A stretch of 64,000 bases of DNA from Escherichia phage HansTraber_Bas100. Below the pieces are notes generated by a model. The model saw only the letters and a program-made list of their open reading frames with translations, ran no database searches and was not told the DNA's origin. The DNA is taken from the sequence record PQ850605.1. The stretch is one strand, 5' to 3'. A program made the position numbers and the translations under genes. Below are positions 2,247 to 63,257 of the stretch, in pieces; positions within the stretch are counted from its first letter, which is position 1; the number at the start of each line of letters is the position of its first letter.

Positions 2247-4622
2247 ATGAAAATTCTTGGCATAAAACTCTGGGAGAAGACGCAACCAGAAGCCGAACAA
2301 GCGGAGATGCCGCCGGGCGACCCATTGGCACCGTTTGAACGCCTGGAAAGGCGCGGCAGCGGTCAACGCTGGGATAAGACCGAAAGCAACCGCCCGACCT
2401 TTAAAACCGTTGATGACTTTCCTTTATATGAGCCTGATATCAACGGGGACGGTGTTGCAATCATCAAAGGTCGCTCAGTAGATTCAGCAACCGTATCCAA
2501 AAAAGTTATGGACAATGCTTTGAAGAACATCAGTTCAGAAGGGCAGGTTAATCCATACACAGTACCTATTCAGTTGCAAAACTGGTACTTATCGCAATCA
2601 TTTATCGGATATCAAGCTTGCGCCATCATCGCGCAGCACTGGCTGGTGAACAAGGCTTGTTCCATGGTAGGCCGCGATGCGGTCCGTAAAGGCTGGGAAG
2701 TCAAATCCAGTTCTGAGTCGGAATTGTCAGTACAGGCCAGCGAACGTCTAAAGCAAATTGATAAAGAATTTAATATCAAAGAGCACTTAGTTGAAGCCGA
2801 ACGATTCAAGAATATTTTTGGTATTCGCGTCATCATATTTGACGTGCGCAGCGATGACCCAGAATATTATAGCAAACCTTTTAACATCGATGGTGTGACA
2901 AAAGGGTCTTATAAGGGAATTATTCAGGTTGACCCTTATTGGATGATGCCATTCTTGACGTCTGAAAACACCGCCGACCCTGCATCACAGCACTTCTATG
3001 ATCCAGAATACTGGGTGATCAGCGGCCAGCGTTATCATCGCAGCCACCTAATCATCTTGCGCAACGATGAGCCAGCTGATATTCTTAAGCCGACTTATAT
3101 CTACGGCGGCATTCCTCTGACTCAGCAGATTTATGAACGCATCTATGCCGCTGAACGTACCGCTAACGAAGCGCCATTGCTGGCGATGTCAAAGCGTACA
3201 ACCACGCTTCGGACCGACGTTGACAAGGCGATTGCCAATGAGCGGTCGTTCGCCGAACGTCTGATGATGTGGATTAAGTACCGCGACAACTATGCAGTCA
3301 AAGTGCTTGGTCAGAAAGAAGAGATGGACCAGTTTGACATCAACTTGTCAGACTTCGACAGTATCATCATGAACCAGTACCAGCTGGTGGCCGCAATCGC
3401 AAAAGTTCCGTCGACAAAACTGTTAGGGACATCACCTAAAGGCTTTAACGCCACTGGTGAGTTCGAGATGGTCAGCTATCACGAAGAATTGGAAACTTGT
3501 CAACAGCACGATTTGACGAAGATTCTGGACCGTCACTATAAAATCCTTTTGAAATCTGAAGGTGTTGAAGTCGACGTTAAAGTGGCATGGGAGCCAGTTG
3601 GTTCACTTACTGCTACTCAGCTTGCAGAAATTAACGACAAACGAGCGAATACTGGCAAGACTCTCATTGATGCTGGCGTCATCTCCCCTGATGAAGAGCG
3701 TGACCGCATCAAAGACGACAAAAACAGTGGCTACAACCGTTTGCCAGAAGATACAGCAGAAGAAACCCCAGGGATGTCTCCAGAGAACATGGCGTTGCTT
3801 GGCAAGTCTGCTGGTGAAGTGCTGCAAGGTAAGGCCGATATTGAACAGGCTAAGGCTGATGTTGTCAAGATGGGCGGCCAGTTCTATAGCGAGACTGGTA
3901 TCATGCCGGAAGGTGCCGCGCGTGGTGAGTTGGCAGAAAACCCTGACAGGGCACCAGTTGAGATTAACATGGATGATACCGATGACGAATCAAGCCATCA
4001 CGTCGATGTCCTAACGCAACTGAAAGAAGGTCTGGAGGGTATTGCTGACTATTACCTTAAAGAAGGTCAGGATGTGGATTTTGACCCTCAAAAAGATGCA
4101 AGGTCGGTGCAACCGTCTACGCTTCCAAGCGTAAAAGGAAATGTCGTAAACTTGCGACACAATGTAGGGAAGATGGATGCCGCATCGCTGCCTAAGATGA
4201 AGTTGCACGGGATGATTCTTGGTATTGAGAATCCTCGCAACAGCATTCGCAGGGGCAACAGCCTTGATGGTGAATGGGCAGTTAAGATGCCGCACCATTA
4301 CGGATTTATCAAAGGCACCAAGGGTGCTGATGGTGATGAAGTCGACTGCTTTGTTGGGCCAAATATGAAGTCGCCTAAAGTATTCATCATTAACCAAAAT
4401 GATAATTATTCTGGCGAATTTGATGAACACAAGTGCATGCTTGGATTTGATTCAGCAGAAGAAGCGAAAGAAGCTTATCAAGCATCATTTGGTAACGGTT
4501 GGAACGGATTCGACTCAATTCACGAATTGGATGTAAACTCATTCAAGGAGTGGTTGAAGGGTGATTGCTCTCAAGCATATGGAGCACTCAATAATCCTAC
4601 TAATTCACCGAAGCAAGGTTGA
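2247..4622 (+). CDS. portal protein with extra C-terminal domain (about 170 aa)
   Basis: 791-aa ORF right after terL-side cassette and before MuF-like gene; AGGTGG RBS; ATG at 2247 preferred over track TTG at 2214; unusually long for a portal. Confidence 0.7.
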   Translation: MKILGIKLWEKTQPEAEQAEMPPGDPLAPFERLERRGSGQRWDKTESNRPTFKTVDDFPLYEPDINGDGVAIIKGRSVDSATVSKKVMDNALKNISSEGQVNPYTVPIQLQNWYLSQSFIGYQACAIIAQHWLVNKACSMVGRDAVRKGWEVKSSSESELSVQASERLKQIDKEFNIKEHLVEAERFKNIFGIRVIIFDVRSDDPEYYSKPFNIDGVTKGSYKGIIQVDPYWMMPFLTSENTADPASQHFYDPEYWVISGQRYHRSHLIILRNDEPADILKPTYIYGGIPLTQQIYERIYAAERTANEAPLLAMSKRTTTLRTDVDKAIANERSFAERLMMWIKYRDNYAVKVLGQKEEMDQFDINLSDFDSIIMNQYQLVAAIAKVPSTKLLGTSPKGFNATGEFEMVSYHEELETCQQHDLTKILDRHYKILLKSEGVEVDVKVAWEPVGSLTATQLAEINDKRANTGKTLIDAGVISPDEERDRIKDDKNSGYNRLPEDTAEETPGMSPENMALLGKSAGEVLQGKADIEQAKADVVKMGGQFYSETGIMPEGAARGELAENPDRAPVEINMDDTDDESSHHVDVLTQLKEGLEGIADYYLKEGQDVDFDPQKDARSVQPSTLPSVKGNVVNLRHNVGKMDAASLPKMKLHGMILGIENPRNSIRRGNSLDGEWAVKMPHHYGFIKGTKGADGDEVDCFVGPNMKSPKVFIINQNDNYSGEFDEHKCMLGFDSAEEAKEAYQASFGNGWNGFDSIHELDVNSFKEWLKGDCSQAYGALNNPTNSPKQG

Positions 4623-6967: not shown

Positions 6968-8389
6968 ATGCGAATGCAAACGGCACGCGAAATTGACAAA
7001 AATGGATTCTTGACGATTATGGGTTGTCCAATTTCGTCATTTGGCATTTTTGATTATTCTGCTGGTCAAGTTGGTCTTGATGGTGATCCGAATCGCATCG
7101 TAAAAGTCTATCGCCCTGAGTCAGCGGTGAAAGACCCCGAAGCGATAGATTCATTCAAAAATATCCCTTTCATCGACAATCACGAAATGCTTTCTGGATT
7201 TGAAGGTGATGAGGATAACACAGCACCCGAAGAGTATGGAGTTGATGGCGTTCTGACTGGCAATGTTTATTATGACAAGCCATGGATGCGCGGCGACCTT
7301 AAAGTGTTCAGCCGTCGTCTGAAGAAGGCCATTGATTCTGGAAAGGTTGACTTGTCTTTGGGCTATGACTGTGAATTCATCATACAGTCTGGAGAGTTTG
7401 ACGGGCAGCCGTATGAAGTGGTGCAGACAACTCTTCGCGGCAACCACATTGCTCTCGTGGACGTTGGTCGAGTACCAGGTGCACGGGTGCTGGATGGTCG
7501 TTGCTTTGACCATCTTTGTTTGACGACTGTAACACCATCCAACGAGGATTTAGACATGCCAAAACCGTTAAAAGGTAAAGCGCGTGATAATGCTGTTGAA
7601 CAGCTGAAATCACTGATCCCTGCGCTCGAACAATTTCTGAACGAAGAGAGTACTGAAGCTGCTCATCAGGATGAAGTTGAAGTGAAAGCAGAAGAGAAGG
7701 ACTCAACCGAAAATCGTGAAGAAGTAATGGTTGATCCAGAAGTCAAGGCAGAAGCAGAAGAAACCCCAGAAGGTGAAGAGAAGTTTGAAGTTGAAACTGA
7801 ATCTCACGCTGGCGGCGAACTTCCGCAATTGATCAGCCAAATCGAAGCACTTATTGCAAAACTGAAAGGTGGCGCGGTAGGTGATGAAGAAGAAGTTGAA
7901 GCCGAAGTCAAAGACGAAGAAGAAGTTGAAGTCAAGGCTGAAGATGTATCACCTTGCGACAAAGCTGAAGATGTGGTTAGCGGCCTGCAAAACAGCAACG
8001 TAAAGGGGGCTTCGGTCGAAAAAGATGACAAACCGACAAAAGCGGCGAAAGCGTCGCCAGGTCCAGCAAAAGGGGAACACTCAATGGCATCTGATTCAGC
8101 AGTTGCTGCTTTCTACGCTGATTCTGCTCGTAAGAATAGCCTCTACCAGCGCCTGTCTAAAGTTGTTGGTGCCTTTGATCATGCAACTATGGACTCCAAG
8201 TCCGTAGCGAAATATGGCGCTAAAAAGTTAGGCTTGAAGTGCGTTGATGGGGCTGAGTTTGACGTGGTGGATAATTATCTGCGCGGCGTTGAGCACGGTC
8301 AAAAACAGCGTGTAGTCGCAAAACAAAAGGCCGCTGCGGATTCTGCAGCAACTGACGAAGCATTTGAAGCTTGGTTGAAAGGGGAATAA
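6968..8389 (+). CDS. scaffold/prohead-like protein with acidic E/V/K-rich C-terminal half
   Basis: position between head-fibre gene and capsid gene; low-complexity acidic repeats (EEEVEAEVKDEEEVEVKAED); start may be ATG 6974. Confidence 0.5.
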   Translation: MRMQTAREIDKNGFLTIMGCPISSFGIFDYSAGQVGLDGDPNRIVKVYRPESAVKDPEAIDSFKNIPFIDNHEMLSGFEGDEDNTAPEEYGVDGVLTGNVYYDKPWMRGDLKVFSRRLKKAIDSGKVDLSLGYDCEFIIQSGEFDGQPYEVVQTTLRGNHIALVDVGRVPGARVLDGRCFDHLCLTTVTPSNEDLDMPKPLKGKARDNAVEQLKSLIPALEQFLNEESTEAAHQDEVEVKAEEKDSTENREEVMVDPEVKAEAEETPEGEEKFEVETESHAGGELPQLISQIEALIAKLKGGAVGDEEEVEAEVKDEEEVEVKAEDVSPCDKAEDVVSGLQNSNVKGASVEKDDKPTKAAKASPGPAKGEHSMASDSAVAAFYADSARKNSLYQRLSKVVGAFDHATMDSKSVAKYGAKKLGLKCVDGAEFDVVDNYLRGVEHGQKQRVVAKQKAAADSAATDEAFEAWLKGE

Positions 8390-8391
8390 AC

Positions 8392-9009
8392 ATGACTTTC
8401 CAAACTAGTGTAGGCCGTCAATATACAACTGGCTTTCCTGGCGACATCGTTCGCGACGGCCCACAGCGTGGGAAGCCAGGCCGAATCGTTAGCGCCAACG
8501 ACGGTGCAAACGTAAACGCCATCAGCCGTGTGTTTGGTTTTAAGGCTGACGTGTCATTAATGGGTACTGGCCAGACCAAAACCTTGGGCGCGCAGGACTT
8601 TGAAGTTGAACTGGGCGGCACCAATTACTATGGCATCCTTGGCAACAGCAAGCGTTACGCTCTGTATGGCAACTCTACTGGTCCTTTGGGTGCCAGCATG
8701 GTTCTGCCTCAATATAGCGAAGGCGAGTTCTATGATATGTGCACGGGCCTCGTAGTTGAAGTATTCAACCCAAGCACCAGTCCGCAGACGCTGAACTACG
8801 GCGACCTGCTCGCTTATGTACCTAAAGGCATTTCCAGCGGTAACAACCCGAACAACTTGCCTATCGGTGCAATTATCGCCTATACTGGCTCACTGCCAAC
8901 TGGCATGGTTGCCATTCCAGGCGGTATCGTGATTGACCCGACTGCTATTGCCCTTTCCGGCCCAAGCGTCCAGTCTTCCACTTATACCATTGTACAATTG
9001 ACTCGTTAA
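8392..9009 (+). CDS. hypothetical head-module protein
   Basis: AAGGGG RBS; ATG 8392 preferred over track start 8371; sits directly upstream of capsid gene. Confidence 0.5.
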   Translation: MTFQTSVGRQYTTGFPGDIVRDGPQRGKPGRIVSANDGANVNAISRVFGFKADVSLMGTGQTKTLGAQDFEVELGGTNYYGILGNSKRYALYGNSTGPLGASMVLPQYSEGEFYDMCTGLVVEVFNPSTSPQTLNYGDLLAYVPKGISSGNNPNNLPIGAIIAYTGSLPTGMVAIPGGIVIDPTAIALSGPSVQSSTYTIVQLTR

Positions 9010-9023
9010 TAGGCAGGTGAATA

Positions 9024-46112: not shown

Positions 46113-46150
46113 TTCAGGCGACCTTTGTTAGTGCGGAAATATTTTCTGAT

Positions 46151-58021: not shown

Positions 58022-58554
58022 TGGGTAACGATGCAGGATGGGGCAAGCCGCGATACTCAAAACTTGCCCACTACTTTGACGACGGCGAGCAAATCAGCTT
58101 GTGCGGTAAATTCAGCAAAGGCAATACAGAGTTGACCGATGCTCAAGAAATGGAATCAAGTTTGACAATTGGTGATTGCTCTAAGTGCAGAAAGGCATTA
58201 TATGAGTTATTAACTCTAAGGGGATTGAAAGCGGCAAAATCAAGGGATGAATGGGTCATTAACGTCTGTGAAGGGAATCCAGAATTAATGGATGAATTGC
58301 TGAAAACAGATGCCGTAAATGCAATTTTCAAAAGGCATTATAAAACTTGTATGCGTTACAAGATGAATGATGATATTATTTTTATGGTATTATCTTATTC
58401 AAGGAGCACAATGGACGTCAAAAAGCTTCGACAATATCGCCACAAGGTCATGTGTGAATTGCGCCGTTTAGGAGTTATTGTGGATAATAATGTCATTAAA
58501 ACGGAATTGAAGAAGCGTGATAAAAGGAATGGTGACTGGAAGGTCAGCGGATAA
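58021..58554 (+). CDS. hypothetical Cys-containing protein (177 aa)
   Basis: ATG 58021 with AGGAGG RBS; last gene of rightward block. Confidence 0.5.
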   Translation: MGNDAGWGKPRYSKLAHYFDDGEQISLCGKFSKGNTELTDAQEMESSLTIGDCSKCRKALYELLTLRGLKAAKSRDEWVINVCEGNPELMDELLKTDAVNAIFKRHYKTCMRYKMNDDIIFMVLSYSRSTMDVKKLRQYRHKVMCELRRLGVIVDNNVIKTELKKRDKRNGDWKVSG

Positions 58555-58842
58555 ATAAACACTGTTTACGTGTTTTGAAGAATGGAATGTGTGCAATTGG
58601 TCGCTTTATGCGGCCTTTTGTCGTTTGGGTCGTGTTTTGCGATGGAATGATTATGAGGTTGTGTTTTATTTATTGATTGTGCGGAAATATTTAGAAATAT
58701 ATATAAACAGGATTGTTAATATTTTAATAGTGTATGGCTATTGGTCCGTGGTGTTTGTTAGATTATATCTATGGATTGAAATTTTAGTGTCGTGAAACGT
58801 GGTTTTGAACACATTTGATACGCCTAAAATACGGTTAAAAAT

Positions 58843-59175
58843 TAAGCGTATCATGGCTGCAGGCCGCGCCGTTGCTGGATTCCTATTTTCAAAAGTGGTA
58901 CACCCTTACGTCATGATACGTCATGGTTTTCTATCCGTAAGAGTGTACAGCCCTTGCCGCGCCTGGCTTGTACATTAATCTTACGGATGATACGGATAAA
59001 ACTGAGCATCGTTATATATAGAATTCGAAAAATTAATTAACTCCATTTTAAAAACATTTATATTAATTTTTTTCATATCCTCATACTTATGTTAATTTAT
59101 ATATTTAACGTATCATCCGTAAGATATAAGTAAAAACAAAGACTTGCGGCAATACGGATGATACGTCATGATACG
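58843..59175. repeat. iteron-like inverted repeats flanking an AT-rich core (element R2, homologous to R1)
   Basis: ATCTTACGGATGATACGGAT (about 58978-58997) and reverse-complement ACGTATCATCCGTAAGAT (about 59108-59125), outer copies, core with TATATATAGAATTC. Confidence 0.65.
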
Positions 59176-59403
59176 CTTCAACCAGCCAGCAGCGGCTAAG
59201 TCATTGATTTGCATAACAAGCGGCGAAAGGGATGGATTTCTTTTATACGTATCAAACAGTACACCACGCACCACGGTCCGCTATTCATTCAGCACTATGA
59301 TTTATGTACTTTTACAGCCAATCTGAACATCAATCTGCACTTGAATATAATGTTCATTCATTGTATAATTCACACTATTAATTTGCACTATGGGATTTGC
59401 ACT

Positions 59404-59877
59404 ATGAGTCAAGATTATGTAGCAATGCCTGAAGACTTTGAAGACCCGCGATTTGCAGAGCATAATCAGGCATTATTCGATGAGTTCATTGACCTTGTTA
59501 TTCAGGGCCATGACATGCGCGCAGCTTTTGCACTAGTATTTGGCATGGAGGTTGCGACCGATAACTACACTGGCCAGCGAATCCTCTGCACGCAACGCAA
59601 TCCGTACTACAAGATGCGCTACAAAAAGCGTATGGAAGAGATGCCATTGAAGGAATTGTGGAGCGTAAAGAGTTCCATCCACAATTTAGTGAAGCTTGTG
59701 CGTGATCCAGAAGTCGCGGCGTCAGCCAAGCTTAATGCCATTCGTGAACTGAATATCATCTACGGCATCACGATGATTGATGAAAATGGCAATAGTAAAA
59801 TGGGCCGTTCCATGGACGATTTCTACAAGGATTTTGGAGAGGCAGCCAAAGAGGGTGAGCAATTCTCCCGCCACTAG
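59404..59877 (+). CDS. terminase small subunit-like DNA-binding protein (tentative)
   Basis: FDEFIDLVIQGHDMRAAFALVFG resembles HTH region of small terminases; weak RBS; ATG overlaps a copy of the 11-mer. Confidence 0.4.
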   Translation: MSQDYVAMPEDFEDPRFAEHNQALFDEFIDLVIQGHDMRAAFALVFGMEVATDNYTGQRILCTQRNPYYKMRYKKRMEEMPLKELWSVKSSIHNLVKLVRDPEVAASAKLNAIRELNIIYGITMIDENGNSKMGRSMDDFYKDFGEAAKEGEQFSRH

Positions 59878-59894
59878 CCAATTTGCACTATAAA

Positions 59895-59932
59895 ATGGCC
59901 CTAGAACACATTTTCTCCACTTCTAGGGCCAT
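59895..59932 (+). promoter_or_regulatory. perfect 12-bp-stem hairpin after terS-like gene
   Basis: ATGGCCCTAGAA - 14-nt loop - TTCTAGGGCCAT; no U-tract. Confidence 0.45.
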
Positions 59933-60305
59933 CGGTAATACGACGGGGAAGGTTACAACCATAAACGCGTTAGAAAGTGTATTATTATAAGTCATCTTTT
60001 AGTCACTTTACGTAACAATTTACGACCTTCCGCCGTCCAGTCGAACGACTCCACCAGCAGATTTGCACTATAACCTAAGACGATGCGTCCCTTCTCGTTA
60101 TCGACCCGCCAACAAGTCTCGAATAGCATTCGATTTGCACTATTAACTATCGCCGCGACGCGCGTTGGGTAAGCGCAATTTGCACTATGGTCATAAAGGG
60201 ATAAGGTGCGACCGCTTCCGATGGACAACGTAGCGATAAGAATAAGCGTATTCATAAGCCACCAATTTGCACTATGAAAAGCGACCCCGAAGGGCCGCCA
60301 TTCGA

Positions 60306-60932
60306 TTAGATAATCTGGAATGTGTAGGACTTGTTGCCGAACTCGAAGTTCAAGCGTCCAGCTTCCTTAAGCTTCATGCGGAAGCGAATGTGCTTGCTAT
60401 CCGGTAATCCCAGCGCGGCGAACGCTACGCGGACCGATTTGAACTCGCCTACACCCTCGACCATGACACCGTTACGGGTGAGACGCTTTTGCGCCACTTC
60501 CTTATTATCCCAGCTTTTTGCAATACCTTCGCTATTCGAACGGCGATGGGAAGGAGTTCCATTTTGCACTACGCAATTTGCACTATCGTTTAAACCGCTC
60601 TTAACGAAGGCTTCATACTCTTCGTCGGTCATCGCGTCGAGTTCTTCCTGGGTCGGCTCGGCCTTTTTAACGACCGCACGCGCCTTATGCGTTTTTACAT
60701 CGCTGGGCACTTCCTCGCGCGACTTCGCGTCTGGGATGGGCGACTCGTTGGACGGCTCATCGAGCGCGTTTAAGGACTCGATTAACGCTATTACGCGAGT
60801 CTCGGCGGTCCGGCGGTCCGCAAATTTTTTGATCGGCTTCGAACCGGAATTTGCATTGTAAAATGCAACGAGGTCGGCGGTCTTAGTTGCGATAACGTCG
60901 CCGCTAGTCGAGAAACGATTTAAGCTAACCAT
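60306..60932 (-). CDS. hypothetical protein (208 aa)
   Basis: AGGAG RBS; coding region contains tandem copies of the 11-mer (reverse strand) encoding SANCVVQN. Confidence 0.55.
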   Translation of the reverse strand: MVSLNRFSTSGDVIATKTADLVAFYNANSGSKPIKKFADRRTAETRVIALIESLNALDEPSNESPIPDAKSREEVPSDVKTHKARAVVKKAEPTQEELDAMTDEEYEAFVKSGLNDSANCVVQNGTPSHRRSNSEGIAKSWDNKEVAQKRLTRNGVMVEGVGEFKSVRVAFAALGLPDSKHIRFRMKLKEAGRLNFEFGNKSYTFQII

Positions 60933-61012
60933 AATGAACTCCTATTTGTTAGGGCGCTAGGCGCGAAAGAATTTTATTAAAGCGCCGCGCACGACGCTCT
61001 AAAAATCCTCTC

Positions 61013-61297
61013 TTACGCTTCGACGAGGGAGAAGGTCTCAAATTCTTCTTCGCCCATAACGAGTAAGATGTTACCGATTTCGACCGCTTCGAAGAAGTAT
61101 CCGTTAACGTTTACTTCGAAGGCTTCGCGGTCCGATTCCGGTAACGCCGCGTAAAGTTTAAAAGCCTCGGCGACCGTTACCCCACCCGCCTCGATAGTTT
61201 GGTCTACGTTCGCGGCGTAGACTTCGGATAAAATTTGTTTTACGCCGTAGTTCTCGACGATAGCGTTACGAATAGAAGAAACGTTAAGAATAGCCAT
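61013..61297 (-). CDS. small acidic protein, paralog A (94 aa)
   Basis: AGGAG RBS 6 nt upstream; promoter and leader homologous to those of paralog C in inverted orientation. Confidence 0.55.
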   Translation of the reverse strand: MAILNVSSIRNAIVENYGVKQILSEVYAANVDQTIEAGGVTVAEAFKLYAALPESDREAFEVNVNGYFFEAVEIGNILLVMGEEEFETFSLVEA

Positions 61298-61321
61298 TTT
61301 AAACTCCTAGTTGGGAGAGGC

Positions 61322-61342
61322 GTTAACGACCTATTCGTTAAC
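61322..61342 (-). promoter_or_regulatory. 5' leader hairpin of paralog A
   Basis: GTTAACGA-loop-TCGTTAAC; same position as hairpin in paralog C leader with two compensatory base-pair changes. Confidence 0.5.
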
Positions 61343-61365
61343 TCATCCCGTCCCGATATGAGTAC

Positions 61366-61393
61366 ATTATAATATAGTGTAGAAAAAAGTAAA
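61366..61393 (-). promoter_or_regulatory. promoter of paralog A (TTTACT-16 bp-TATAAT)
   Basis: hexamers on - strand; spacer contains CTACACT. Confidence 0.45.
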
Positions 61394-61437
61394 GCACTTT
61401 TTCGATAAAAATGAGATAAATTATTTTATCTTTTTTC

Positions 61438-61465
61438 TTTACTTCTTCGTACACTCGCGTATACT
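61438..61465 (+). promoter_or_regulatory. promoter of paralog B (TTTACT-16 bp-TATACT)
   Basis: conserved spacer TCTTCGTACACT shared with paralog C promoter. Confidence 0.45.
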
Positions 61466-61521
61466 TGTTTATATCGAGACGGGCGATGGCCCTTCCTTCT
61501 ACTAGCATCGGGAGTTTTATT

Positions 61522-61824
61522 ATGACTACTTTAATCTCTTCTATCCTTACTTACGACGAAGACCGTTTAACCGTTCGTTCTCTTATCGCCGCCGTTAACG
61601 CGGAACTAGAATCCACCATCATTAAGGTCCGCGCGGTCGCTTTCGTCGGGCTTTCCTTCGACGATATGAAATACGCCGAACGTAGCGCCATCCGCTTCGC
61701 GAAGACCGACGACGAAGCCGTTACCCTTATCGAGACGGTTACGCCTCACGGCGAAGCGTTAATTATCGTCGAGTATATCGACGTAGAAGGCGATAAAGCT
61801 TATAAACATTTTATCGCAAAATAA
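61522..61824 (+). CDS. small acidic protein, divergent paralog B (100 aa)
   Basis: ATG 61522 with GGGAG RBS; track start 61465 overlaps the -10 and is rejected. Confidence 0.5.
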   Translation: MTTLISSILTYDEDRLTVRSLIAAVNAELESTIIKVRAVAFVGLSFDDMKYAERSAIRFAKTDDEAVTLIETVTPHGEALIIVEYIDVEGDKAYKHFIAK

Positions 61825-61834
61825 CGAAAAGTGC

Positions 61835-61863
61835 TTTACTTCTTCGTACACTAAGACTATAAT
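61835..61863 (+). promoter_or_regulatory. promoter of paralog C (TTTACT-17 bp-TATAAT)
   Basis: hexamers plus conserved spacer TCTTCGTACACT. Confidence 0.5.
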
Positions 61864-61885
61864 GTTTTATATCGAGAGGGGATGA

Positions 61886-61906
61886 GGTAGCGAATAGGTC
61901 GCTACC
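61886..61906 (+). promoter_or_regulatory. 5' leader hairpin of paralog C
   Basis: GGTAGCGA-atagg-TCGCTACC perfect 8-bp stem about 25 nt upstream of ATG. Confidence 0.5.
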
Positions 61907-61930
61907 CGCCCGACCAACTAGGAGATTATT

Positions 61931-62221
61931 ATGATTACTTTAGCCGCTATCCGTTCCGCTCGCGTCGAGACTTCCGAAAACTCTAACGTATTTGGCGAGA
62001 CTTTAGAGAGCGTTTATCTCTCTAACGTCGACGCGACTATCGAGTCTATTTATGAGCCGATCAACTTCCTCGACCTTTACAAGTATCGCGACGAGGACAT
62101 CGTATCGTCCCGCGTAACGATCAACGGCTTCGTTTATACGATTACCGAAATCGGCGGCGAATATATCGCGGTCCCGCAACTCGGCGGCGAAGTAACTTAT
62201 TTTAAAATCGTCTCCTTATAA
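61931..62221 (+). CDS. small acidic protein, paralog C (96 aa)
   Basis: AGGAG RBS; shares IR.A.VE, VY..NVD.TIE and NG(F/Y)..EIG motifs with paralog A. Confidence 0.55.
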   Translation: MITLAAIRSARVETSENSNVFGETLESVYLSNVDATIESIYEPINFLDLYKYRDEDIVSSRVTINGFVYTITEIGGEYIAVPQLGGEVTYFKIVSL

Positions 62222-62241
62222 TACCCTTCCGTTACTAATAG

Positions 62242-62266
62242 GCCGCGCTTAGTCGCGGCTTTTCTT
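62242..62266 (+). terminator. intrinsic terminator after paralog C
   Basis: GCCGCG-cttagt-CGCGGC stem followed by TTTTCTT. Confidence 0.5.
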
Positions 62267-62385
62267 CGTCCCTATCTCGTTGCGCTCCTACGCGAAAACT
62301 CCTTTATCCTTCCCTTCGTCGTCGCATAATCTTCGTCGGTATGCGCCTTAGTTCGCATAACAGGTATTACGTTAAATGGAGAACA

Positions 62386-62459
62386 TCGCGTAAGTCCTTG
62401 TTTTATATAGACACCTATATCGGACCGTTAGGGCGGGTCGCGTAAGTCGTTGTTTTATA
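62386..62459 (+). repeat. two direct copies of a 22-bp repeat, 52-bp period
   Basis: TCGCGTAAGTCCTTGTTTTATA at 62386 and TCGCGTAAGTCGTTGTTTTATA at 62438. Confidence 0.6.
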
Positions 62460-62690
62460 AAGGCGCAAAACTTTCCCTTCGTTCCGAACTAAAACGAGAA
62501 ATATGCGGACCCTTCGCTCGAAAATAGTACGCATGCGAAATTACCGACATCTAGAATAATCCCCATCGATATTATCCTACGCGCAACCATTCGCTTTCGA
62601 ATTGTAACGCTGGAAACTGTAACGGCGATTGATTATTGCGTTCGTGTGGTTTTTAGGGCATGGGTCTTTTGGTGCGTTTTGCTACTTGAT

Positions 62691-62804
62691 GGAATTTGCA
62701 GTACACTAATCAAAATACGACACATTTGGTCCACTAACTTTTCAAAGAAAAAGTCCTAGACAGTACCGTACTATTTTGTATCCACAGGAAATTTGCAGTA
62801 CACT
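62691..62804 (+). repeat. two copies of GGAA(A)TTTGCAGTACACT
   Basis: copies at about 62691 and 62787; shares ATTTGCA and CACT with the 11-mer and GTACACT with island promoter spacers. Confidence 0.55.
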
Positions 62805-62876
62805 CCTGCGCGCGGCAGGCAAAATAAAGGGCCGCACTAAGCGACCCACGATTCACGGTTAAATCAACAACACCCA

Positions 62877-63257
62877 CTATTCACTCTTATGGGCATCACC
62901 AAATCCATCAGCAATCTGGCTGATCAACGACTCAATGGACACAGTTTTACCAATTGATCGAGCGGTTATGGCGAGCATATTATCAATCAAACCGTGATTA
63001 ACACAATACTCTGGAGATTTAGAATCATCTTCAGAACAACCAAAAAGCTGGTCGCGCAGACTTTCAAGAGAACGCTCAATATTTTCCAACTTCTCTTCTA
63101 AATCGGATTGGCGACGTAAAACCCATGTCAAGTCACGGTTGCCAACTTCCAATCCATCAGAATAGCAAGGTGGAGCGTCAATTTTGATGCTGGAACCAAA
63201 AGCAGTGCCGCTGCCTTTAGTATAAGTATGGCTCATAGAATCATTTTTATTTGACAT
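62877..63257 (-). CDS. hypothetical protein (126 aa)
   Basis: ATG 63257 with AAAGG RBS preferred over track TTG 63323, which would run through a terminator hairpin. Confidence 0.5.
   Translation of the reverse strand: MSNKNDSMSHTYTKGSGTAFGSSIKIDAPPCYSDGLEVGNRDLTWVLRRQSDLEEKLENIERSLESLRDQLFGCSEDDSKSPEYCVNHGLIDNMLAITARSIGKTVSIESLISQIADGFGDAHKSE

Follow-up and report, generated by a model that had tools for sequence, protein, structure and literature searches.

A polar array of short boxes around the small-terminase gene

The 64,000-bp stretch of the genome of Escherichia phage HansTraber_Bas100 analysed here (record PQ850605.1; hereafter the window, in whose coordinates all positions are given) comes from a Wifcevirus, its identity to phages of that genus (myophages of E. 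coli and Shigella, among them WFC, WFH and Mansfield) being 94-97%. Around its gene for the small terminase subunit (terS) lies an array of short repeats, referred to below as boxes: eight exact copies of the 11-mer ATTTGCACTAT, starting at 59381, 59395, 59881, 60061, 60133, 60178, 60265 and 60576, all on the plus strand and all within 59381-60586. The gene for the large subunit, terL, is found at the start of the window (as annotated in Bas99), some 58 kb away from terS. The features of the locus are the following.

59045..62669, no strand: direct terminal repeat, placed by homology to the PhageTerm call for phage Mansfield
59341..59369, plus strand: sigma-70-type promoter of terS, TTGAAT-17-TATAAT
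59368..59378, plus strand: degenerate box ATTCACACTAT, beginning in the final 2 nt of the terS -10 hexamer and lying operator-like over +1
59381..59391, plus strand: box 1, ATTTGCACTAT, leading member of the tandem pair 5' of terS
59395..59405, plus strand: box 2, the final two bases of which, with a G, make the terS ATG (59404)
59404..59877, plus strand: terS, small terminase of the E217 type, 157 amino acids
59526..59536, plus strand: near box TTTTGCACTAG in terS, read as codons F-A-L
59881..59891, plus strand: box 3, 3 nt past the terS stop, making the tail of a minus-strand terminator
59895..59933, minus strand: intrinsic terminator hairpin closing the leftward operon (-25.1 kcal/mol, z = -4.5)
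59992..60255, minus strand: gene of a signal-peptide-like small protein of 87 amino acids, holding three boxes
60061..60071, plus strand: box 4, in the 87-amino-acid gene, read as Y-S-A-N
60133..60143, plus strand: box 5, in the 87-amino-acid gene, read as N-S-A-N
60178..60188, plus strand: box 6, in the 87-amino-acid gene, read as H-S-A-N
60265..60275, plus strand: box 7, between the genes of the 87- and 208-amino-acid proteins, making the tail of a minus-strand terminator
60280..60299, minus strand: intrinsic terminator hairpin past the 208-amino-acid gene (-18 kcal/mol, z = -3.1)
60306..60932, minus strand: gene of a 208-amino-acid protein (PHROG 4730), a rival but disfavoured candidate binder of the boxes
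60562..60586, plus strand: tandem pair of the near box at 60562 and box 8 (60576), in the variable linker of the 208-amino-acid gene (…DSANCVVQNG…)

The array is real, non-random, polar and local. Only 2 x 64000 / 4^11 = 0.03 copies of an exact 11-mer are expected by chance, and an exhaustive search of both strands, which returned the eight same-strand copies within 1.2 kb, found no further copy with up to one mismatch elsewhere in the window; on these counts, including the chance figure, which we recomputed, a preliminary description of this DNA proved correct. Dinucleotide-preserving shuffles contained a mean of 1.86 matches with up to one mismatch, and 0 of 100 shuffles reached eight. Where that description had reported one near copy there are in fact two copies with two mismatches, at 59526 (TTTTGCACTAG, within terS) and at 60562 (TTTTGCACTAC, in tandem with 60576), which brings the array to about 10 boxes within 1.2 kb; more degenerate copies start at 59368 and 60849. 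When the search is relaxed to the pattern [AT]YYYGCACTAN, ten plus-strand matches fall in 59381-60576 and a single match, on the minus strand at 46128, lies elsewhere.

Boxes extend from 23 bp 5' of the terS ATG to 709 bp beyond the terS stop, and none were found in the window outside 59368-60586. Copies are local to the array rather than evenly dispersed at similar density over the 64 kb, and they do not stand in sense orientation upstream of many transcription units, as promoters would. Strand bias is absolute, yet the confinement of the motif to 1.2 kb differs from the replicon-wide distribution of Chi sites or FtsK-orienting polar sequences (KOPS). Five copies (60061, 60133, 60178, 60562 and 60576) sit within minus-strand genes. 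The copies that had been assigned to a 420-bp gap behind terS are indeed there, but the gap is not empty: it holds the 87-amino-acid gene with its three boxes, along with two terminators. The U-tracts of both minus-strand terminators run into a box, and the counterpart of the hairpin at 59895..59933 is annotated as a terminator in the WFC record. The tandem pair seen earlier inside the 208-amino-acid gene is made up of the near box at 60562 and box 8. Spacing is irregular, as had been noted, although the original list of intervals omitted the 486 bp from 59395 to 59881.

A scan of 58500-63000 against Rfam gave no family match at E <= 1, and a string search for the box sequence in a library of papers returned no occurrence in a phage context. 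Compared by eye with consensus sequences, the DnaA box, sigma-54, marbox, integration host factor (IHF), ops, EcoKI and T7/SP6 promoter sequences offered no convincing match to the box.

The box co-occurs with one clade of TerS

Homologues of TerS were gathered from annotated phages, IMG/VR and Logan assemblies. Boxes surround terS in six further lineages, with 6-13 copies each and TerS proteins 40-70% identical: there are nine boxes in L003 (TerS ~65-70% identical), 10 and nine in L017 and L018 (~50%), six, some of them in the form ATCCGCACTA, in L019 (~45%), 13 in Pantoea phage PA1 (40%), and 10-11 in L032/L033, whose TerS is 60% identical to that of PA1. Their strand is always that of terS, and they range from ~100 bp 5' of the gene to ~900 bp 3' of it. 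Across the first six loci, 55 boxes are on the terS strand and 0 on the opposite strand, where 0.015 per kb and strand would be expected. Alignment of 53 copies, selected by the core GCACTA, gives the consensus (R)A-T-Y-T-G-C-A-C-T-A-T-(G) with random flanks, from which we take (R)ATYTGCACTAT as the family consensus.

Some individual positions are shared as well. The overlap between box 2 and the terS start codon is also present in L003, and the near box at 59526 is kept in L003 as well as in all 12 Wifcevirus genomes compared. The position of box 5 is conserved in L003, L017 and PA1, and in L018 it is occupied by a variant box read as N-S-A-D; the 45 bp separating box 5 from box 6 are retained in L003 and PA1.

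The box was not found in ten other TerS-bearing lineages that we examined (Pbunavirus, Serratia MTx, Salmonella PCSE1, tabernarius, FoX7, Gekk3-15, L034, L043, L045 and L084). When IMG/VR was scanned for paired boxes, dispersed arrays turned up in Wifcevirus only, the other matches being due to chance or to regular tandem repeats. The array, then, co-occurs with one clade of TerS.

Boxes are constrained at the DNA level, even inside genes

Boxes located in minus-strand genes are read, in all lineages, in one frame: xAT-AGT-GCA-AAT, which translates as (H/N/Y/D/L)-S-A-N. As to the other frames, ATA-GTG-CAA (I-V-Q) is available as an alternative and the third would hold a TAG stop. The Ser, Ala and Asn codons are identical across lineages despite TerS being only 40% identical, the residue preceding the serine is whatever NAT permits, and a T-to-C change in a box of L018 turns N into D. 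Boxes are also gained and lost at homologous positions of a small protein that is itself clearly conserved. Since the codons are invariant and the amino acid follows the variation of the box rather than the reverse, constraint acts on the DNA.

Within the 12 Wifcevirus genomes, copies of the box turn over. Four boxes are invariant among them, box 1 (59381), box 5 (60133), box 6 (60178) and box 7 (60265). At box 2, five genomes carry TTTTGCACTAT by virtue of a 1-bp insertion, one of the 12 has an extra box near 59281, and the pair at 60562/60576 is missing from 3 of the 12, which carry another allele of the linker. Such turnover gives the picture of an array of redundant sites.

The distances between boxes (61 spacings) range irregularly from 12 to 608 bp. 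Helical phasing is absent: Rayleigh p is 0.96 at a period of 10 bp, 0.38 at 10.5 bp and 0.52 at 11 bp. There is a period-3 signal (p = 8e-4), which arises from the coding frame together with the avoidance of the TAG stop codon.

A genuine small terminase with a clade-specific residue pair

That the gene at 59404-59877 resembles terS had been suggested before, and homology searches establish it as a true small terminase, a homologue of that of the Pseudomonas phage E217. Its product matches the E217 protein, solved by cryo-EM (7UXE), with E = 9e-33 in phmmer and E = 3.8e-63 with a family profile, and for an AlphaFold (AF2) model with a predicted local distance difference test score (pLDDT) of 72 the top PDB match in Foldseek is again 7UXE, followed by the TerS of PaP3 and NV1. 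The protein belongs to no Pfam family, and Pfam, NCBIfam and PHROGs assign it no function, the only match being PHROG 4783 (unknown function). A helix-turn-helix is predicted from the same model, with helices at residues 38-46 and 56-65.

The end of the second of these predicted helices differs between lineages with and without boxes. In all seven box-bearing lineages position 64 is Q, K or R and position 65 is R; in all 10 box-less lineages position 64 is E or D. E217 TerS itself has E-S at residues 64-65, and a review describes it as showing no appreciable DNA binding in vitro (PMC9611059). The residue pattern, a sequence correlation, fits a role of TerS as the reader of the boxes.

terS has its own near-consensus sigma-70 promoter inside the terminal repeat, and equivalents can be recognised by eye in L003, L017, L018 and PA1. 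A promoter of this kind suggests that unmodified host polymerase transcribes terS, perhaps early, which would be unusual for a packaging gene. A box begins at the -10 hexamer of this promoter here and likewise in L003, L017 and L018, so that in four lineages a box overlaps -10/+1 of a conserved terS promoter.

The array lies inside the direct terminal repeat

The record of phage Mansfield has been opened at the edge of a direct terminal repeat, 3,673 bp long, that PhageTerm predicted (PMC6563267). Its first base aligns at window position 59045 and the end of its repeat at ~62669; the WFC record, which includes both copies of the repeat, ends ~80 bp further right, at ~62751. With the left end placed by homology to Mansfield in this way, the array is situated 336-1541 bp inward of the left end of a ~3.6-kb repeat. 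Being wholly inside the repeat, array and terS are present twice in each virion genome. The layout is not peculiar to Wifcevirus: L032 and L033 represent opposite ends of a single 73-kb contig in which terS begins 356 bp from the contig end and the repeat measures ~3.6 kb, so that repeat and terS are arranged in the same manner.

The left end falls within a ~110-bp, very AT-rich spacer (~59000-59110, 270 bp from the first box), right after a conserved TTAACTCC. This spacer is bracketed by inverted short repeats that are specific to each lineage: here TACGGATGATACG, with arms at 58968-58994 and 59109-59135, in L017 and L018 TTACGGATA, and in PA1 AACCGTT. For JG024, a Pbunavirus thought to package by headful, a putative pac, ~600 bp upstream of that phage's terS homologue, has been suggested (PMC10913387), a location implying that packaging seems to begin just upstream of terS across the family.

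The repeat's right end has a different conserved element, GGTACTT-N(12-14)-(A/C)GTACAC, within ~30 bp of the boundary. It is found at 62680-62707, with a duplicate 97 bp downstream (62788-62804) and a DnaA-box-like GTATCCACA between the two copies (62778-62786). The motif at 62691-62804 that had been thought related to the box is this separate element; it occurs at the same relative place in L003 (~8980-9011) and PA1, without resemblance to the box there, and is also listed at ~8650-8680 in L005.

In relatives, we also observed that Chi sites (GCTGGTGG) cluster in the left portion of the terminal repeat, often directly adjoining a box. Counts are seven in PA1, five in L017, seven in L018, four in MTx and 9-10 in L032/L033, and clusters span 4861-6433 in L005, 411-1836 in L017, 323-1824 in L018 (six of seven; the seventh is at 4348) and 179-1276 in L004. 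All clustered sites are on the strand that RecBCD would recognise on entering from the left genome end. The window has one exact Chi, at 60051-60058 on the minus strand, where its complement precedes box 4, and near-copies at 59871 and 60259. Terminal clusters of oriented Chi sites have been described for P1 and for lambdoid phages of the LLS type (PMC12315714); for the present phage group we found no such description.

A candidate recognition array for TerS

What might read the boxes, and to what end? Our preferred interpretation, to which we assign a probability of roughly 0.45, is that they are redundant binding sites of a single sequence-specific phage protein, most probably TerS, and constitute a dispersed polar recognition array for it, which would serve both as a packaging site of the pac or cosB kind and as an operator on the terS promoter. 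TerS would recognise (R)ATYTGCACTAT through a helix-turn-helix on the exterior of its ring, and binding would tag, in replicated concatemers, the terminal repeat's left ~1.5 kb as the region where packaging initiates, the array taking the role that cosB has in lambda or pacL/pacR in SPP1. TerS would then place TerL to cut the AT-rich segment ~340 bp leftward, at the left boundary of the repeat (59045), with the shared orientation of the boxes fixing the polarity of the terminase complex. Boxes over -10/+1 and the start codon of terS might let the same protein curb terS synthesis.

What the sequences establish is a non-random, strand-locked array that lies in the terminal repeat close to the PhageTerm-defined end, is conserved as DNA and co-occurs with one TerS clade; TerS binding, a packaging role and autoregulation we infer. 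Features expected of a site of the pac or cosB type are in place: boxes lie in and beside terS, terS is genuine and has a predicted DNA-binding domain, and a genome end is near. An arrangement expected of a repressor operator, on the other hand, is found only at the terS promoter, with the copy at 59368 and, a little downstream, those at 59381 and 59395, and not at the other boxes. As these copies directly follow or overlie the promoter, regulation of terS through them, possibly by its own product, is plausible on sequence grounds.

Some of these arrangements have parallels. In phage lambda, the R3-R2-R1 boxes of cosB are bound by gpNu1 and lie next to cosN and the Nu1 gene. Both systems have several short asymmetric boxes that lie between the cut site and the small-terminase gene or overlap the start of that gene, and in both the boxes are on the packaged side of the cut. 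cosB differs in comprising, over ~120 bp, three boxes of mixed orientation and an IHF site, whereas the present array has about 10 boxes of one orientation spread across 1.2 kb and three genes; lambda also has a cohesive end, whereas here there is a 3.6-kb direct repeat and TerS binding is only proposed. The pac sites of SPP1 and SF6 (pacL and pacR, located within gene 1 and upstream of it and bound by G1P) and the pac hexamers of P1 are alike in placing repeated short boxes in or around terS near the cut, and in SPP1 binding of G1P overlaps the promoter of gene 1, a situation similar to that of the box overlying the terS promoter in the window. These phages, however, package by headful and have compact sites of less than ~300 bp, and their TerS proteins belong to other sequence families, whereas the TerS of the window, without a Pfam family, matches by sequence only that of E217. 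Compared with lambda cosB, SPP1 and P1 pac, the array is four to ten times more extended, strictly unidirectional and situated in three genes; unlike them it belongs to a phage with a long terminal repeat and to a TerS family without a known DNA target.

E217 is closer in its proteins. Its TerS is homologous (the 7UXE decamer, ~38% identity), and terS is likewise far from terL, as the last gene of the same arm. Yet E217 and the pbunaviruses are thought to be headful phages, and instead of an array of ATTTGCACTAT they have weak (T/A)AACACTCA repeats only. In Pbunavirus Ab27 (L006) we noticed four or five same-strand copies of (T/A)AACACTCA at 305-430 and 1273, three of which form a tandem series, 12-13 bp apart, ~280 bp upstream of terS, with another just downstream of the gene; an AT-rich stretch ~550 bp upstream of terS in the same genome marks the site of the putative pac of JG024.

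The preliminary description had likened the boxes to pac boxes bound by TerS. A real TerS, the location in the terminal repeat and the conservation of boxes along with terS speak for that suggestion, but a number of points weigh against it. To begin with, box-bearing lineages form one clade, so the correlation between boxes and residues 64-65 may only mirror descent, and any other clade-specific protein would fit equally well. The predicted helix-turn-helix region of TerS is moreover just ~30-40% identical across lineages while the GCACTA core of the box is invariant. Known pac and cosB sites are compact (under ~300 bp); the array, in contrast, covers 1.2 kb irregularly and without helical phasing. 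Among the 12 Wifcevirus genomes, box columns are not significantly less variable than their flanks (9/88 versus 195/1383 columns variable, p = 0.42), and one pair, 60562/60576, is evidently dispensable. An apparently host-type terS promoter among early-looking genes is odd for a function in packaging that is purely late. Finally, the inverted repeats that flank the left end could be the real recognition or cleavage elements of the terminase, and the AT-rich region that they bracket could alternatively be an origin or promoter region.

Alternative explanations

There are several other scenarios that might account for the array. One is that the boxes are operator or architectural sites for a phage protein other than TerS, either an early regulator or an organiser of genome ends that silences, bridges or protects the repeat. 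This, the foremost of the rivals, we regard as unlikely. In four lineages -10/+1 of the terS promoter is overlain by a box, the surrounding genes of the repeat are of an early type, and the oriented Chi clusters beside it in relatives point to the processing of ends. The operator proposed in the preliminary description thus holds for one position, -10/+1 of the terS promoter, and fails for the other boxes, most of which are distant from any promoter; the boxes are also asymmetric and not paired as operators of dimers would be. No candidate regulator is identifiable with Pfam, NCBIfam or PHROGs among the proteins encoded in the repeat. The obvious neighbour is the 208-amino-acid protein, which has a strongly conserved basic C-terminal helix and has been found in phage preparations. 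However, when 66 viral loci with relatives of this protein were fetched by means of the helix pattern [KVS]HI[RSK]FRxxLK, boxes were present in only seven, those with a TerS of the Wifcevirus/PA1 type, and absent from the other 59. Boxes, therefore, do not track the 208-amino-acid protein, and we reject it as their likeliest reader.

We give somewhat less credence to the idea that the boxes are iteron-like sites of a phage replication origin, read by a replication protein such as one of the primase/helicase proteins encoded in the same arm, with the AT-rich segment at 59000-59110 as unwinding element. Direct repeats that all point one way, close to ~110 bp of very AT-rich DNA with inverted repeats on either side, would suit an origin, and an unrelated viral contig, L133, has TTTTGCACTACC boxes as 22-23-bp iterons in a gene resembling HTH_36 replisome organisers, from which it follows that a box-like sequence can serve as an iteron. 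The likeness extends to iteron origins in replisome-organiser genes more generally (lambda ori in gene O being another), in that direct repeats lie in a coding linker, and in L133 they are translated as S-A-N or V-V-Q-N with the same avoidance of stops. Yet iterons are regularly spaced (22-23 bp in L133), whereas the distances between boxes vary from 12 to 608 bp without 10-11-bp phasing (Rayleigh p = 0.38-0.96), and most boxes are within three unrelated genes across 1.2 kb. In addition, no initiator with an internal origin is evident at the locus, the AT-rich segment coincides with an end generated by packaging, and the match in L133 owes its selection to the very pattern searched for. The L133 iterons (7454-7554; also seen in L118 and L171) stand beside an AT-rich stretch, with a gene for a DnaC/IstB-like loader next to them; they make up a textbook internal origin that by chance has the core of the box.

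A third scenario retains TerS as the reader but gives the array a different purpose; it strikes us as doubtful, a shade more so than an origin. Boxes would form a polar landing strip in the manner of KOPS, and an early-expressed, repeat-encoded TerS ring would, together with co-oriented Chi sites, make up a module for processing genome ends. Such a module would orient the terminase motor and might also, or instead, unite terminal repeats for RecBCD/RecA recombination into the concatemers needed for packaging. Strict polarity, irregular spacing, tolerance of coding sequence and redundancy of copies are all shared with KOPS and Chi, and boxes are interleaved with Chi in relatives. On the other hand, KOPS and Chi are spread over replichores or genomes and read by host motors, whereas boxes keep to ~1.2 kb of the terminal repeat.

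More improbable again is a host factor of Enterobacterales as the reader, or a polar signal to a host translocase or nuclease, similar to Chi. In favour, the box does not vary between phages of E. coli and those of Pantoea, it is strictly polar, and relatives have Chi sites of the correct orientation interspersed with it. But the Serratia phage MTx and the Salmonella phage PCSE1, which have the same genome layout, lack it, and we know of no E. coli site (DnaA box, marbox, IHF, sigma-54 or ops) that it matches.

Least probable, and disfavoured even though it had been put forward in the preliminary description, is that the boxes are phage-specific promoters or some other transcription signal: their end, CACTAT(G/A), is loosely like the 3' part of T7/SP6-type promoters and one copy is at the terS promoter, but no copy precedes any other operon in the 64 kb, half of the copies lie within genes or antisense to them, the Bas99 annotation contains no phage RNA polymerase or sigma factor, and CACTAT fits the sigma-70 -10 consensus at 3/6 positions only. 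The promoter motifs mapped in the relative 14-1, which are sigma-70-like or have CTGGG as their core, are unlike the box (PMC10914365).

Neighbouring genes and other features of the repeat

The 87-amino-acid protein has a signal-peptide-like N-terminus and a conserved pair of cysteines (…SANC…CWR…DW…). Homologues are conserved in all box-bearing lineages, among them L003, L017, L018, L019 and PA1 (the last with two copies), and the sequence of the protein is moulded by the boxes that its gene carries, in the form of S-A-N tripeptides.

The 208-amino-acid protein is a two-domain, unannotated member of a very large phage family (831 cluster representatives at E <= 1e-3), to which Pfam, NCBIfam and PHROGs assign no function. 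Its C-terminal segment SVRAAFAALGLPDSKHIRFRMKLK is almost invariant and includes the strongly conserved basic helix LPDSKHIRFRMKLK. By eye, this helix possibly resembles a small helix-turn-helix of the NUMOD type; in profile searches against PDB and Pfam scans of 38 members, one member of the family had a weak match to a NUMOD-like domain. The gene is convergent with terS in both Wifcevirus and Pbunavirus, and the protein was detected by mass spectrometry in preparations of vB_Eco4M-7 (PMC7048862).

Further inside the repeat, 61295-61933 contains three copies of a promoter-like module, AAAAGTGCTTTACTTCTTCGTACACTA…TATAAT, whose hexamers are TTTACT-16/17-TATAAT or TATACT, at 61393-61366 (minus strand), 61438-61465 (plus) and 61835-61863 (plus). 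The modules are part of inverted repeats of 65 nt and 27 nt and resemble divergent early promoters that have been duplicated midway along the terminal repeat.

Implications

How terminases recognise and cut DNA in phages with long direct terminal repeats is largely unknown, and no DNA target is known for TerS proteins of the E217/PB1 type. The array offers a concrete candidate of 11 bp for such a target, and residues 64-65 (Q/K/R-R versus E-x) provide a matched pair that can be swapped, which together make specific recognition testable. If the boxes were instead a landing strip for a module that processes genome ends, TerS would have a second job early in infection. Wifcevirus phages are in use for the biocontrol and detection of E. 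coli O157 and have already been synthesised in vitro, an assembly route being available for vB_Eco4M-7 (PMC11074155); for their engineering, the array bears on which cis-elements of the terminal repeat must be kept.

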